Assembly: GCA_964561585.1 (NCBI GenBank) | Contig: CAZLQB010000002.1 | Span: forward strand, 1 to 29,067 | DNA length: 29,067 nucleotides | Source: an uncultured Pseudomonadota bacterium | Lineage (GTDB): Bacteria > Babelota > Babeliae > Babelales > RVW-14 | Reading direction: 5' to 3' | Shown here: piece after piece, positions 100 to 22,706 of the stretch | Layout of the letters: the number at the start of each line of letters is the position of its first letter | How positions within the stretch are numbered: position 1 is the first letter of the stretch | The notes under the pieces: model-generated | The model's database searches: none | Told to the model about the DNA's origin: nothing | Seen by the model: the letters and a program-made list of their open reading frames with translations, nothing else | Translations under genes and position numbers: made by a program

Positions 100-130
100 C
101 CTAGGGAGGTGCAGGAGGGAACGGCCTGCA
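100..130 (+). repeat. Short GC-rich palindromic repeat (copy A): cctagggaggtgcaggagggaacggcctgca. It contains the inverted repeat TGCAGG...CCTGCA.
   Basis: An exact 29-bp match to the reverse complement of 22678..22706. An expanded copy lies at 5636..5702. GC-rich against an AT-rich background. Confidence 0.8.
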
Positions 131-3043: not shown

Positions 3044-3250
3044 GCTCGAGCGCCGTTCGTACCCATTCGACTACGCTCAGGGCGAACGGCGGATTAATAT
3101 CCTGCACCGCGTCGAAGGACGCCCTGTAATTGCTATGGCGGACAGGCAGAACGAACGAGTAAAATTTCGTTCGTGGTGAGCGAAGCCCCTTTGGGCGAAG
3201 TCGAATCCACATGAAATTTTGAGCATATCGAACCACCGCCCAAAAGAGCG
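3044..3250. repeat. GC-rich, multi-hairpin intergenic element between convergent genes. It may be a composite palindromic repeat or a small structured RNA.
   Basis: Several perfect stems are visible: CGCCGTTCG/CGAACGGCG (3051-3059/3083-3091), ACGAACG/CGTTCGT (about 3150-3175) and CCACCGC/GCGGTGG (about 3234-3253). It contains the module ggcggacaggc shared with the uvrC insertion (reverse complement gcctgtccgcc). Confidence 0.6.
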
Positions 3251-3285
3251 GTGGACAAACATCATATTATAAAAACAGAAAGCTA

Positions 3286-4830: not shown

Positions 4831-4890
4831 GTATTTCCTTGTTTTTTTTACCCGAAATTTAAACTATTTATTCGCCCCAGCTTATACAAA

Positions 4891-6573
4891 TCATACACCA
4901 TTATCAAGGCCTTTTCGCGCTATTTTACGGTGAAAACTAATGGCAAAGTGGTGAGTATAGTCACGCAGGGCAATCAATAGCTGGCCGGCAAAGGTCATTT
5001 TATCAAGACGACGCCCCTCTGGAAGCCGATCGGCGTAAACAGTTTCTTCGCGTTTTGCCAAACTGATAACATCAACCCCGTCCGGTATTAGTGGCCGCGT
5101 AGCCGATAACTGCCCTTTCCCACCATCAATTACCACAAGATCGGGTAAATCTTCCCCATCACGGTACCGCCGCCCAACAATCTCGGCCAAACTGGCATAA
5201 TCGTCCTGCCCTTTAACCGTTTTTATATGAAAATGGCGAAACATTTTTTTGTCAGGCTGGCCATCGGTAAACCGCACACAAGACCCAACCATAAACATCC
5301 CTTGCTTGTGAGAGATATCAAAACAATCGATTTTGCGCGGCTCTTTGGCCAATTTAAGGAGTCGTTTAAGGGATTGGCCCAACGTTGCCTTTTTGATAAG
5401 TTCCTGCGCAACCTGGACCGTTGCATAGCGTATTAATGACAATTCATGGCCAATAGTAGGCTGCATAATGGTCACCGGTTGGTCAAGGTGGTGCCATTGA
5501 GTTAAAAACTGTTGGTACAAATCTCGTTCGGCCGGCGCAAGGTCAAAATTGACGAGTATTCTGATGGCTGGTCTAAAGGTTCGGTAATAACCTATAAAGT
5601 ATTCTTCTAAATTTTGCGGCTCATAAGGGGGTTCTCCAAGGGAGGTGCAGGAGGGCCTGTCCGCCGTAGCCACGCCAGGGCGAAGGCTGGAAACGGCCTG
5701 CATTAAATCAATATCAACAAAAGGAAAATAGAAACTTTGTTTAAGCCTCAGCACATTTTGCTGCTCAATCAAAACATGAAGCGACCTTTTATCATCGGCC
5801 AAAATCCAAATATCATGCCCAACCCGCCCGCCAACACTCATAGGCTTAATATCTAAATACGAAAAAACCTTATGGCACGCTGTGTAATACCCGTGTAATT
5901 CACGCGCACGCTCAAATTCTTCCCGCTTATTGCATGCCTGTATTTGCGCCATAAGGTCATCAAGAAAAACTTTATGCCCCTGCGACATCACCCGCCGCGC
6001 GAGATTAAGCCGTTCGGTATATGCTGCTTCATCAAAATCAGGCCGGCATTTTCCAGCGCAAATGCCAAGGTGATAGTCCAAGCACCCATTTTCAATCTTT
6101 TTTTTACATAACTTAAGGCGAAATGTTTTTATCAAAAAATCATAAACTTGGCGCGCCGCAGCCTTTTCAAGAAACGGTCCTAAATAGGTCCCCTTTTGCT
6201 TACGATTTCGCACCAATTTAAGCTCAGGCAATTTATTGGCCGTAAAAAGCAGGAATATAAACGGCTGGCCGGTCTTGAGTAAAACGTTAAATTTTGGCTG
6301 GTTGCTTTGAATAAGTTGAGCCTCAAGCAACATCGCCTCAAGTTCAGTTCCGGTTATCTGGTGGTCAAGGTGGTCACTTTCTTGCAATAAACTATCAACC
6401 TTTACATCTCGCCCAGCGCGCTGCAAATAATTGGCTCCGCGCTTTTTGAGGTTTTTCGCCTTGCCTATATAAAGAATATGGCCTTCGGCATCCTTAAAAA
6501 GATAAACGCCTGGCTTAGCGGGCAACTTTTTGATATCGGCAGCAACTTTTTCATGTTCAGTTAAAAGAATCAT
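4891..6573 (-). CDS. uvrC: Excinuclease ABC subunit C (UvrC), carrying an in-frame repeat insertion
   Basis: N-terminal GIY-YIG domain (PGVYLFKDAEGHILYIGKAKNLKKR). Endonuclease-domain motif IDCFDISHKQG. SD AGGAGAGG upstream. The repeat at 5636..5702 is translated in-frame (QAVSSLRPGVATADRPSCTSLG) in the linker before the endonuclease domain. Confidence 0.85.
   Translation of the reverse strand: MILLTEHEKVAADIKKLPAKPGVYLFKDAEGHILYIGKAKNLKKRGANYLQRAGRDVKVDSLLQESDHLDHQITGTELEAMLLEAQLIQSNQPKFNVLLKTGQPFIFLLFTANKLPELKLVRNRKQKGTYLGPFLEKAAARQVYDFLIKTFRLKLCKKKIENGCLDYHLGICAGKCRPDFDEAAYTERLNLARRVMSQGHKVFLDDLMAQIQACNKREEFERARELHGYYTACHKVFSYLDIKPMSVGGRVGHDIWILADDKRSLHVLIEQQNVLRLKQSFYFPFVDIDLMQAVSSLRPGVATADRPSCTSLGEPPYEPQNLEEYFIGYYRTFRPAIRILVNFDLAPAERDLYQQFLTQWHHLDQPVTIMQPTIGHELSLIRYATVQVAQELIKKATLGQSLKRLLKLAKEPRKIDCFDISHKQGMFMVGSCVRFTDGQPDKKMFRHFHIKTVKGQDDYASLAEIVGRRYRDGEDLPDLVVIDGGKGQLSATRPLIPDGVDVISLAKREETVYADRLPEGRRLDKMTFAGQLLIALRDYTHHFAISFHRKIARKGLDNGV
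5636..5702. repeat. Expanded copy (B) of the palindromic repeat, with a 35-bp internal module, sitting inside the uvrC coding sequence
   Basis: ccaagggaggtgcaggaggg + cctgtccgccgtagccacgccagggcgaaggctgg + aaacggcctgca. The flanks are identical to copies A and C. The internal module is related to 3100..3146 (reverse complement). Confidence 0.8.
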
Positions 6574-10762: not shown

Positions 10763-11035
10763 CTAGAGGACGATGTCCTTCAATCTCTTGCCAGGCTTGA
10801 ATTTTGGAACTCTCTTGCTTGGGATCTTCATCTTTTGGCCAGTTGCAGGATTGATACCAAGACGTTCTTTTCTTTTCATAACAGCGAAGGTTCCGAAGCC
10901 TGTTAAGACAACGGTTTTGCCTTTCTTGAGTGTGCCTTCAACGGCCTTGATAAAGGATTCTAAGGCACTTTTGCAAGTTGTTTTAGGCAACTTGGTTTCT
11001 TTTGCCATGTGTTCAATCAACGCAGCTTTATTCAT
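10763..11035 (-). CDS. hup: DNA-binding protein HU (HU/IHF family)
   Basis: A 90-aa protein, MNKAALIEHMAKETKL...GFGTFAVMKRKERLGINPATGQKMKIP...KPGKRLKD. This is the canonical HU fold sequence with the beta-arm. Confidence 0.9.
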   Translation of the reverse strand: MNKAALIEHMAKETKLPKTTCKSALESFIKAVEGTLKKGKTVVLTGFGTFAVMKRKERLGINPATGQKMKIPSKRVPKFKPGKRLKDIVL

Positions 11036-11295: not shown

Positions 11296-11384
11296 ATGGT
11301 GCCGAGGGCCGGACTCGAACCGGCACGGGTTGTTCACCCGAGGGATTTTAAGTCCCTTGCGTCTACCAATTCCGCCACCCCGGC
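11296..11384 (-). tRNA. tRNA-Leu (anticodon UAA)
   Basis: The reverse complement folds as a cloverleaf: acceptor GCCGGGG/CCTCGGC, anticodon loop CTTAAAA, a long variable arm, T-loop TTCGAGT and an encoded CCA. Positions A36-A37-A38 make it an i6A37/ms2i6A37 substrate. Confidence 0.85.
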
Positions 11385-11395
11385 AACCATATATG

Positions 11396-11469
11396 TGGAG
11401 GCGGCACCCGGATTTGAACCGGGGGTCGCGGATTTGCAGTCCACTGCCTTACCACTTGGCTATGCCGCC
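11396..11469 (-). tRNA. tRNA-Cys (anticodon GCA)
   Basis: Reverse complement GGCGGCATAGCCAAGTGGTAAGGCAGTGGACTGCAAATCCGCGACCCCCGGTTCAAATCCGGGTGCCGCCTCCA. Anticodon loop CTGCAAA, T-loop TTCAAAT and an encoded CCA. Confidence 0.85.
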
Positions 11470-19439: not shown

Positions 19440-19705
19440 TGAAGAACCACTCATCCTACCTTGTCGTGCTGGGCCCTGTCCGGAACTTGATTCAGAAGTG
19501 ATTCAGCATCCATCTTTCAGCTTATTCAATTGATTTTATGATGGATCCTCGATCCCAGCCGTCGCCAAGGCTATCATCCGTCGCTCTACGTAGCTATGGA
19601 TGACAGGTGGCGGGCAGGCACGTCGAGGATGACAAAGCAGAAAAAACGCACATTTTAAACAACTTCGGACGGTTATGAAACAAGTTCAGGATGACAAGGC
19701 GGCTG
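19440..19705. repeat. GC-rich intergenic island of degenerate repeat modules
   Basis: The module GGATGACARG occurs three times (19593, 19627, 19689). ggccctgtccgg (19468) and ctatggatgacagg (19590) are variants of the gcctgtccgcc / ctatggcggacagg modules seen at 5656 and 3133. Confidence 0.55.
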
Positions 19706-21874: not shown

Positions 21875-22666
21875 TCACAAATCAATCAATTGAACATTTG
21901 CAACAATGTCCCCAATCAACCGACGAGCAATAAACTGAAATTGCTTCGCATCCTTGGTCGCATAAAATTGATAATTTGGTATATCAACCAGAGCATTTTG
22001 CAGCAAAACACGTTTAACCTGCCGCGCAACAGGATCATTTGAATCAAGAATGGTCACCGAAGGGCCAACGATGCTTTGTAATTGTGCACGCACAAAGGGA
22101 TAATGGGTGCTACATAAACCAATAACGTCCGCATTATTATCTATTGCTGGAGCAATAAGCGTGCGTAGTAATATTTCCATTTCAGGTGTATTAATCTTGC
22201 CCGCTTCAACCAAATCGGCAAGGCCCGGACACCCAATACTCAAAACCTGTGCACCATGAGCAAACTTATTAATAAGATCCTGGATATAATTACCACTGGC
22301 CGTTAATGGCGTAGATAAAATAGCAACACAGCCTGTTTTTGTTTGTTCACAAGCGGGTTTGACAACCGGAACCACCCCGACAAATGGGATGGAGAATTTT
22401 GAGCGCAAATAGTCGATGCTTGCAACCGTTGCCGTATTGCAAGCAATAACAACTAATTTTACGTCATGTTTATCGATCAAAAATTGTACAATTTTTTCTG
22501 AAATTTGCTGGATCTGTTCGGTGGTTTTTTGACCAAACGGCATGTATTTATTGCCCGCAACATACACAATATCTTCGTTGGGCAATAAACGCGTAATTGA
22601 TTGGAAAATGCCGAGGCCGCCAACCCCAGAATCAAACATGCCGATAGGTTTATTTAATAAAGGCAT
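21875..22666 (-). CDS. murI: Glutamate racemase
   Basis: IGMFDSGVGGLGIF N-terminal motif, with the conserved Cys-containing motifs (VIACNTA and GCTHYP). Confidence 0.9.
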   Translation of the reverse strand: MPLLNKPIGMFDSGVGGLGIFQSITRLLPNEDIVYVAGNKYMPFGQKTTEQIQQISEKIVQFLIDKHDVKLVVIACNTATVASIDYLRSKFSIPFVGVVPVVKPACEQTKTGCVAILSTPLTASGNYIQDLINKFAHGAQVLSIGCPGLADLVEAGKINTPEMEILLRTLIAPAIDNNADVIGLCSTHYPFVRAQLQSIVGPSVTILDSNDPVARQVKRVLLQNALVDIPNYQFYATKDAKQFQFIARRLIGDIVANVQLIDL

Positions 22667-22677
22667 TGTTAATTATA

Positions 22678-22706
22678 TGCAGGCCGTTCCCTCCTGCACC
22701 TCCCTA
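22678..22706 (-). repeat. Palindromic repeat copy C (an exact inverted copy of 102..130), lying in the 44-bp secA-murI spacer
   Basis: tgcaggccgttccctcctgcacctcccta is the reverse complement of tagggaggtgcaggagggaacggcctgca. Confidence 0.8.

Follow-up and report, generated by a model that had tools for sequence, protein, structure and literature searches.

The uvrC gene on a 29,067-nt contig of a metagenome-assembled genome (MAG; contig CAZLQB010000002.1, 41.5% GC, hereafter the window) harbors a GC-rich segment which we interpret, with a probability of about 75%, as the fossil trace of small GC-rich hairpin repeats that inserted at least twice in succession; these repeats populate the genomes of Dependentiae and resemble the repetitive extragenic palindromic sequences (REPs) and the Rickettsia palindromic elements (RPEs). 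The window's UvrC homologues bear the names Candidatus Babeliales or Dependentiae. The segment is built from a 27-nt hairpin repeat, termed here the 27-mer, and from a 36-nt hairpin of a second family, termed here the core, which occupies the loop of the 27-mer. It is a genuine case of small selfish hairpin repeats lying in frame in uvrC; the phenomenon itself is already known from REPs and RPEs. Below, P labels denote UvrC proteins and L labels denote loci, with the pairs P0002/L001, P0003/L002, P0005/L123, P0008/L124, P0021/L125, P0067/L158 and P0078/L157. The gene and the parts of the segment lie in the window as follows:

4891-6573, minus strand: uvrC coding sequence, an open reading frame (ORF) of 560 aa that hosts the insertion.
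5627-5639, plus strand: fragment of a related hairpin repeat, GGGGGTTCTCCAA (peptide GEPP), adjoining the 27-mer; 16 nt, GGGGGTTCTCCAAGGG, are common to locus L041.
5640-5655, plus strand: left part of the 27-mer, an exact 16-mer made of the unpaired tag GGGAGG, the 5' stem TGCAGG and the first four loop bases AGGG.
5656-5691, plus strand: the 36-nt core hairpin in the 27-mer loop, which neither the other 27-mer copies nor the uvrC genes of L001 and L002 contain; its minus strand encodes UvrC residues S295-R306 (SSLRPGVATADR).
5692-5702, plus strand: right part of the 27-mer, an exact 11-mer made of the loop bases AACGG and the 3' stem CCTGCA.

The original prediction for this DNA, made from the letters alone, held that a repeat copy is translated in frame within uvrC without breaking the frame, and this is correct. 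The longest GC-rich island of the window (5627-5702, 70% GC vs 41.5% overall) reads as ..DLMQAVSSLRPGVATADRPSCTSLGEPPYEP.. in the uvrC frame, with 5640-5702 translated as ..MQAVSSLRPGVATADRPSCTSLGEPP.., inside an intact 560-aa protein that passes TIGR00194 (320.8 bits, cutoff 285), matches GIY-YIG, UvrC_RNaseH and UvrC_RNaseH_dom in Pfam, and keeps all columns that are invariant across 75 homologues. The anatomy proposed for the segment, a 67-bp copy of a repeat that recurs twice in intergenic DNA of the window, needs to be redrawn. The segment is indeed repeat-derived, but it is really a 27-mer (5640-5702) split by the core, and what recurs between genes (104-130 and 22678-22704) is the 27-nt shell, from which the core is missing. 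The complete 27-nt unit consists of the tag GGGAGG, the stem TGCAGG, the loop AGGGAACGG and the stem CCTGCA. Counting its flanking words supports the repeat: the 16-mer GGGAGGTGCAGGAGGG has three exact copies in the window where 0.07 are expected, and the 11-mer AACGGCCTGCA accompanies it each time. In every other 27-mer copy these two words directly adjoin each other, and only in the window's uvrC do 36 nt (CCTGTCCGCCGTAGCCACGCCAGGGCGAAGGCTGGA, 5656-5691) stand between them. Those 36 nt score 54.4 bits (E = 3.7e-10) against the core covariance model R1 and also fit the core pattern, while no second copy of the 63-nt composite of 27-mer and core was found. The repeat of which the adjacent fragment is a part has its full form, CTCCAAGG-GGGAACG-CCTTGGAG, in L041, where GGGGGTTCTCCAAGGG again adjoins a 27-mer copy; the fragment is also found in the L001 uvrC. 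That the repeat might be specially designed to avoid stop codons in each of the six frames was rejected, as 42% of 27-mer shuffles are likewise stop-free; the long form (27-mer + core) has a stop codon in one frame.

We compared 120 Dependentiae UvrC homologues, and examined the DNA of the closest relatives and of several more distant ones. In ~100 of the 120, the loop that runs from FYFP to EYF..YY is 18-28 aa long and shows no trace of the insert. The relatives that bear on the history of the site are listed with their identity to the window's UvrC:

P0002 / L001, 82% identity: bare 27-mer ATGCAGGCCGTTCCCTCCTGCACCTCCC, peptide MQAVPSCTS.
P0003 / L002, 75% identity: bare 27-mer, with sequence and position as in P0002.
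P0004 and P0009, 72% and 65% identity: loop empty.
P0005 / L123, 71% identity: related copy, inverted, GGGAGGTGGCGGAGGGAACGGCTGCC (EVAEGTAA).
P0008 / L124, 58% identity: core-family copy in the window's orientation, within a different palindromic shell.
P0021 / L125, 56% identity: another hairpin repeat.

The core is a clean 12-aa insertion present in this genome alone, and the 27-mer at the site is an older insertion common to two other species (P0002 and P0003). The clean insertion of about 22 aa that the original prediction expected from an alignment of orthologues is therefore seen against most of them, but not against the two closest, which share the 27-mer and leave only the 12-aa core as genome-specific. 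Empty, filled and doubly filled alleles of one site make the order of events directly readable. A neighbor-joining tree calculated without the loop has the topology (P3,((P1,P2),(P4,P5))) with short branches, so that even this small clade calls for two or three distinct events at minimum. The 27-mer is identical at 27 of 27 positions in the three species, while their uvrC genes are 72-78% identical overall and 47-56% identical at third codon positions. Because this identity far exceeds that of the third positions, the 27-mer is either under constraint as DNA or RNA, homogenized against other copies, or recently re-inserted.

The 27-mer is not confined to uvrC, as it has 9 copies in 5 genomes. 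In their alignment the tag and the loop are invariant and the 6-bp stem shows compensatory variants (TGCAGG/CCTGCA, TGCGGG/CCCGCA and GGCGGG/CCCGCA, that is AU to GC or CG). Stem cells are paired in 94% of cases vs 24-44% when the partner column is slid, and double changes occur in two pairs. Plainly intergenic copies make up 4 of 10, and the window holds two of them:

104-130, plus strand: bare 27-mer, 8 nt past the NfeD stop codon (6 nt for its conserved TA lead-in) and upstream of a Band_7 gene.
22678-22704, minus strand: bare 27-mer, ~7 nt past the stop codon of a SecA-like gene and upstream of murI.

The spacer orthologous to 104-130 is empty (11 nt) in L002 and filled by other repeats in L001. 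Among the genic copies, the frame QAVPSCTS is used by uvrC in three genomes, by an AMP-ligase ORF in L041 and by an epimerase-like ORF in L080, there as a C-terminal extension, while the inverted copy in P0005 is read as EVAEGTAA. L041 and L080 come from a scan of genome contigs with the 16-mer, which gave many chance matches in GC-rich genomes; these two loci were the informative ones among the matches listed. A degenerate 27-mer pattern had no match in viral contigs. At 22666-22704 (minus strand) the 27-mer is directly followed by TATAAT, with the murI ATG another 5 nt on; this TATAAT could be the -10 box of a near-leaderless transcript or could be there by chance.

The core family is widespread in low-GC, Dependentiae-like metagenome contigs. 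Our degenerate pattern search of JGI metagenomes recovered 31 loci, nearly all on low-GC contigs, and the R1 model finds 58 copies in 234 kb of these metagenome loci, plus more in the window and its relatives. The core aligns as CCTG-YCCKYC-GTAGCCACGWAGGGCGWA-GGMKGG, with columns 5-10 pairing with columns 30-35. Pair 8-32 is GC in 11 copies and UA in 11, pair 5-35 is CG, UG or UA, and double changes occur in three pairs. Core cells are paired in 92% of cases vs 84% in shuffles (0/500 as high) and 37-56% with the partner slid, and the covariation score is 0.289 vs 0.146 shuffled (0/500 as high). This is not an ascertainment effect, because four of the stem columns lie outside the search pattern. 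The loops vary, so that units are mostly 30, 33-35 or 42-60 nt long. Rfam gave no match at the gathering threshold in the window and none with E <= 1 at the core positions of seven loci, and ARAGORN found only two tRNAs in the window (11297-11469).

Core copies found by the model rather than by the pattern are intergenic in 29 of 35 cases (~83%), and the other six lie in open frames of at least 150 aa. Most of a bacterial genome is usually coding; if that applies here, the core is strongly depleted from genes. Where cores do lie in long open frames, seven of eight are antisense to the ORF, the exception being the L158 uvrC copy, which has no GTAG motifs. By direct reading, the consensus contains TAG in two of its three forward frames and none in reverse, so the antisense bias of genic cores is explained by a stop-codon filter acting on the TAG of the GTAG motifs. 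The 29-kb window altogether contains three 27-mers, two intact cores, one interrupted core and one degenerate core. Besides the uvrC core, the core copies lie as follows:

19574-19607, minus strand: second intact core, intergenic, in the loop of a short-loop core (R1 37.1 bits, E = 3.5e-6).
19543-19633, minus strand: three-level nest between an 860-aa and a 394-aa gene, with an outer hairpin (GTCATCCTCGA ... TCGAGGATCC) enclosing the short-loop core (CCTGCCCGCCA / TAGCCTTGGCGACGGCTGG), which encloses the inner core at 19574-19607.
3120-3147, minus strand: degenerate core in a GC-rich mosaic at 3044-3285, the spacer between a penicillin-binding protein (PBP) gene and murJ; 82% match to 5655-5682.

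The orthologous spot of the degenerate core in L001 carries a better-preserved copy (R1 34.3 bits).

Three comparisons of filled with empty sites place a core precisely in the loop of a pre-existing hairpin, and none of them shows a target-site duplication or inverted-repeat ends. One sets the window's uvrC against L001 and L002, with the junction GGAGGG^AACGG. Another sets the uvrC of P0067 against that of P0078, where the loop of GCTCGTGG^TGAGC holds a core-like hairpin of 36 nt; the sister uvrC in L157 has the host hairpin without the core. The remaining one sets the window's nest at 19543-19633 against uninterrupted short-loop cores at L125 16655-16684 and L152 11990-12019. This nest folds into one long hairpin of -44.2 kcal/mol (z = -4.6, with 0 of 200 shuffles as good). 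Landing of the core in loops is common but not obligatory; the stronger idea that the core always sits inside an outer hairpin was rejected, as this is true of only ~9 of 33 copies. The left flanks (AGGG, GTGG and GCCA) reveal no conserved target tetranucleotide.

Related repeats also occur in frame in other genes of related genomes, which bears out the RPE-like behavior proposed in the original prediction: the 27-mer in uvrC, the AMP-ligase and the epimerase-like gene, the P0021-type element in uvrC and the acetyl-CoA synthetase gene acs, and the core composite in uvrC and the MiaB gene. In L158, the host hairpin CGCTCGTGG..GAGCTTGTCGAACC with its core is in frame both in MiaB (2560-2700, an insert of ~40 aa) and in uvrC (10930-11000). 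At L125 17405-17447, a 43-nt hairpin repeat lies in frame in acetyl-CoA synthetase in the opposite orientation and is identical at 42 of 43 positions to the uvrC repeat of that genome; compared with the L002 orthologue, this synthetase has a 30-aa insertion that includes the P0021-type element.

The insertion site was earlier placed in the linker between the UvrB-interaction region and the endonuclease domain, but Pfam puts it in a loop inside the UvrC RNase H-like domain (PF22920). In P0024, a homologue without inserts, this domain covers residues 250-364, and in the window's UvrC the match resumes only at residue 314 (profile position 38). An AlphaFold2 model of the window's UvrC has a mean predicted local distance difference test (pLDDT) score of 87, but across residues 281-320 the score drops to 65, 52, 44 and 51 vs 86-87 on either side, and residues 301-314 are below 50. 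The loop is flanked by a confidently predicted strand (274-282) and a confidently predicted helix (320-332), and its low confidence is consistent with disorder. Inserts of at least 8 aa occur in this loop in 16 of 120 homologues vs no more than 4 at any other internal site. Several of them are translations of other GC-rich repeats; the insert peptide TLRQAQGER, for instance, resembles the translation of a ..CGCTCAGGGCGAACG.. module that is also found in the window spacer at 3054-3088. One UvrC loop is thus a recurrent sink for at least four repeat types, which recalls an unexplained surplus of REPs among Uvr and Rec genes reported in a 2013 survey (PMC3733652).

Residues 242-247 (consensus columns 259-261) form a minor second hot spot and are the only other loop with pLDDT below 50; the P0043 insert there contains QGERSE, like the translated CTCAGGGCGAACG repeat module. 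These Dependentiae UvrCs stop ~15 aa past the PF08459 endonuclease domain (residues 545-560 in the window's protein), at ~525 aa where inserts are lacking, and so appear to be without the DNA-binding (HhH)2 domain that canonical UvrC has at its C-terminus. Other GC-rich islands within window genes were considered as further inserts and rejected as ordinary coding sequence; the island at 1693-1742 in the PBP gene is judged so because PBP orthologues are equal in length (634-635 aa).

Taken together, the comparisons show that a 27-nt hairpin inserted into a loop on the surface of the UvrC RNase H-like domain, no later than in the ancestor shared with two related species, and that the 36-nt core, belonging to a different and far more widespread family, then inserted precisely into the single-stranded loop of the 27-mer in this lineage alone. 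The gene stays open because both lengths are multiples of three, the pieces are stop-free in the frame used, and the host loop is of low confidence. The 20-26 extra UvrC residues are probably a neutral passenger; selection would act as the filter, and the genic survivors would be the in-frame, stop-free copies that fell into loops. As to how the repeats move, IS200/IS605 elements and the REP-associated tyrosine transposases (RAYTs) use a single-strand "peel and paste" route, and these HUH-family enzymes recognize DNA hairpins and act without terminal inverted repeats or target duplications. Because the repeats here are compensated hairpins, lack inverted repeats and target duplications, and have repeatedly landed in hairpin loops, they may likewise be mobilized through single-stranded DNA by a structure-recognizing mechanism in trans, like that of RAYT or IS200/IS605-type HUH enzymes; we give an HUH-type enzyme roughly one chance in three. 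Gene conversion is a possible route of spread. The insertion sequences (ISs) IS1397 and ISKpn1 insert into the loops of REP palindromic units, but unlike these and unlike IS200/IS605, what has been inserted here is a non-coding hairpin of 34-36 nt rather than an IS. A bolder version would make the core an autonomous-looking, ultra-small mobile hairpin that targets the single-stranded loops of other hairpins, those of its own family included, and so generates recursive mosaics, three levels deep at 19543-19633. On this view, independent insertions would have struck the UvrC loop repeatedly in different Dependentiae through a targeting preference and not through tolerance alone, with the uvrC 27-mer as the landing pad that makes the hot spot. 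We consider this version doubtful.

Several observations weigh against successive insertion as we describe it. The uvrC copy has an unremarkable folding energy (z = -0.6 to -1.8) and the hairpin claim therefore rests on covariation; the palindromic character asserted in the original prediction is weak by energy but is backed by compensatory changes for both hairpins. A significant outer inverted repeat surrounds only ~9 of 33 cores. In the neighbor-joining tree, P0003 falls outside the group of P0001, P0002, P0004 and P0005, so that a single ancestral insertion of the 27-mer demands that P0004 lost it and that in P0005 it was inverted or replaced; otherwise the insertions were independent. The copy number of the 27-mer and its ratio of genic to intergenic sites are based on 9 copies, and the 36-nt insert is read from a MAG contig. 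With respect to mobility, a tblastn search of ~0.4 Mb of flanking DNA with an approximate query, an insensitive test, gave no match to IS200 TnpA, and clustering of the ORFs flanking core copies in the same ~0.4 Mb, a weak test, revealed no RAYT or transposase candidate and no recurrent ORF family.

The segment might instead be an ancestral UvrC linker that the relatives without it have lost. The peptide MQAVPSCTS is common to P0002 and P0003, and the inserts of P0008 (58%) and P0021 (56%) both begin with GCCGTT at the same offset past FYFP, as such a linker would allow. Yet about five in six homologues (~100/120) carry no trace of it in their short loops, P0011 is empty although it is the sister of P0008, the same DNA occurs in intergenic spacers and unrelated genes, and the 27 nt are identical although silent sites between the species are near saturation. 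This explanation is already largely refuted and we find it scarcely credible. The polarity of the second step could also be reversed, with the long form as the original unit and the bare 27-mers as its deletion products, for instance by hairpin excision during replication slippage, hairpins being generally prone to deletion. REP families in which short and long self-complementary loops coexist are known from the 2013 survey (PMC3733652). However, the composite is without a second copy vs eight uninterrupted 27-mers in four genomes, the core stands alone in dozens of contexts with unrelated flanks, and identical precise deletions would be needed in P0002, P0003 and every intergenic copy, at junctions that have no direct repeats from which slippage could yield GGAGGG|AACGG. 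We regard a long-form origin as very unlikely.

It is also conceivable, if unlikely, that the hairpins are selected host elements, such as transcript-stabilizing or terminating hairpins or protein-binding sites, which spread by recombination or gene conversion and whose genic copies are accidental or regulatory. Covarying stems with conserved loops fit this explanation, as do the perfect conservation of the 27-mer between species and the L155 core that lies in a terminator-like hairpin (AAAAAAGGGCAC...GTGCCCTTTTTT). Both intergenic 27-mers moreover lie within ~8 nt of the upstream stop codon in a co-directional gene pair, a position typical for REPs (PMC3733652). Against it, Rfam has no matching family, the repeats occur in both orientations relative to transcription and, within ORFs too, in either orientation, and orthologous spacers of sister genomes are empty or carry different repeats, which argues against a locus-specific function. 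Finally, the 36-nt insert could be an artefact of assembly or binning, given that the window is one whole MAG contig of 29,067 nt, that its UvrC is a singleton protein cluster and that short repeats can give mis-joins. The insert is nevertheless exactly 36 nt long and in frame, intact 27-mer halves flank it, the gene is syntenic and otherwise colinear, and analogous nested inserts are present in other assemblies (P0067 vs P0078, and the P0008 uvrC), so that an artefact is the last explanation we would choose. Insertion of the 27-mer followed by the core thus remains our preferred reading.

Among known repeats, REPs are described by Di Nocera et al. 2013 (PMC3733652) as 20-40-nt tagged stem-loops, mostly intergenic and near ORF 3' ends, which occur as singletons, inverted dimers or tandem clusters and in some families have short and long loops. 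The same survey reports that a minority lie in frame within ORFs, contributing ~10-30 aa, notably in excinuclease ABC (UvrABCD), RecBCD and polymerase genes outside Rickettsia, and puts the tolerated intragenic copies down to flexible loops (PMC3733652). The Dependentiae repeats resemble REPs in size (27 nt for the 27-mer, mostly 30-36 nt for the cores and up to ~60 nt in long-loop forms, vs 20-40 bp), in the compensatory stem changes of both families, and in position, with 29 of 35 cores intergenic and both intergenic 27-mers of the window starting within ~8 nt of a stop codon. They differ in that one repeat lies within the loop of another, up to three levels deep, in that their tags are GGGAGG (27-mer) and CCTG (core) rather than a terminal GTAG or CGTC, with GTAG occurring twice inside the core loop, and in that no RAYT turned up in our insensitive search of ~0.4 Mb of flanks. 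Since the terminal tag is absent and no RAYT was found, we keep them out of the GTAG/CGTC REP superfamilies. Dependentiae are also not among the eight phyla surveyed, as far as the text drawn on here shows (PMC3733652).

RPEs (Ogata et al. 2000, 2002) are selfish palindromic repeats of an obligate intracellular bacterium that lie in frame in unrelated housekeeping genes; RPE-1-type elements measure ~100-150 bp, and nearly half of the R. conorii RPE copies are genic, according to two later papers (PMC10969869, PMC3733652). Like them, the repeats described here are inserted in frame in several unrelated genes, in a fold-compatible loop of low pLDDT, and reuse one frame (QAVPSCTS) across genes. 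Their units of 27 and 34-36 nt and their host, which belongs to another phylum, set them apart, as does a core family that is ~83% intergenic. The RPE-like reading of the uvrC insert holds, and its behavior is closer still to that of intragenic REPs. The original prediction had suggested that, were this genome not a Rickettsia, it would be an independent instance of such a repeat; the host is indeed a member of the Dependentiae, but the novelty was overstated, since in-frame REPs outside Rickettsia were documented in 2013 (PMC3733652). What our data add is an extension of the RPE and intragenic-REP phenomenon to the Dependentiae (TM6, Babelota), obligate intracellular parasites of protists. 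We found no mention of such repeats in the Dependentiae genome papers searched, in part by term only. Such repeats explain length heterogeneity and low-complexity segments of Dependentiae proteins, and give rise to artefacts when MAGs are annotated and aligned. They are not classical miniature inverted-repeat transposable elements, because they have neither terminal inverted repeats nor target-site duplications. The GC clusters of yeast mitochondria are likewise mobile, short, palindromic and GC-rich within an AT-rich genome, and coding sequences occasionally tolerate them in frame, but they are organellar and eukaryotic with unrelated sequences, and nothing here points to a shared mechanism.

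Several further arrangements of these repeats were observed. The 242-nt PBP-murJ spacer of the window (3044-3285) is a mosaic of other GC-rich hairpin modules, and in L001 the orthologous spacer has 452 nt, in L123 a mere 7 nt. Its stretch 3054-3088 (CGTTCGTACCCATTCGACTACGCTCAGGGCGAACG) is identical at 35 of 35 positions to L001 18240-18274, which lies in a different spacer of another species. In L002 alone, an extra gene of the PDDEXK_9 nuclease family is found between murJ and the PBP gene (4859-6067), with GC-rich repeat modules on either side, and is possibly a mobile insertion. Cores form an inverted dimer in L137, and at L127 11034-11170 at least four identical core units follow one another head-to-tail with a period of 34 nt; after this array come related modules in a patchwork and, ~300 nt downstream, a copy in inverted orientation. 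At L143 7457-7560, a near-perfect hairpin of ~100 nt gives sub-threshold Rfam matches to plant miRNA precursors on both strands and is probably a long palindrome unrelated to the core.

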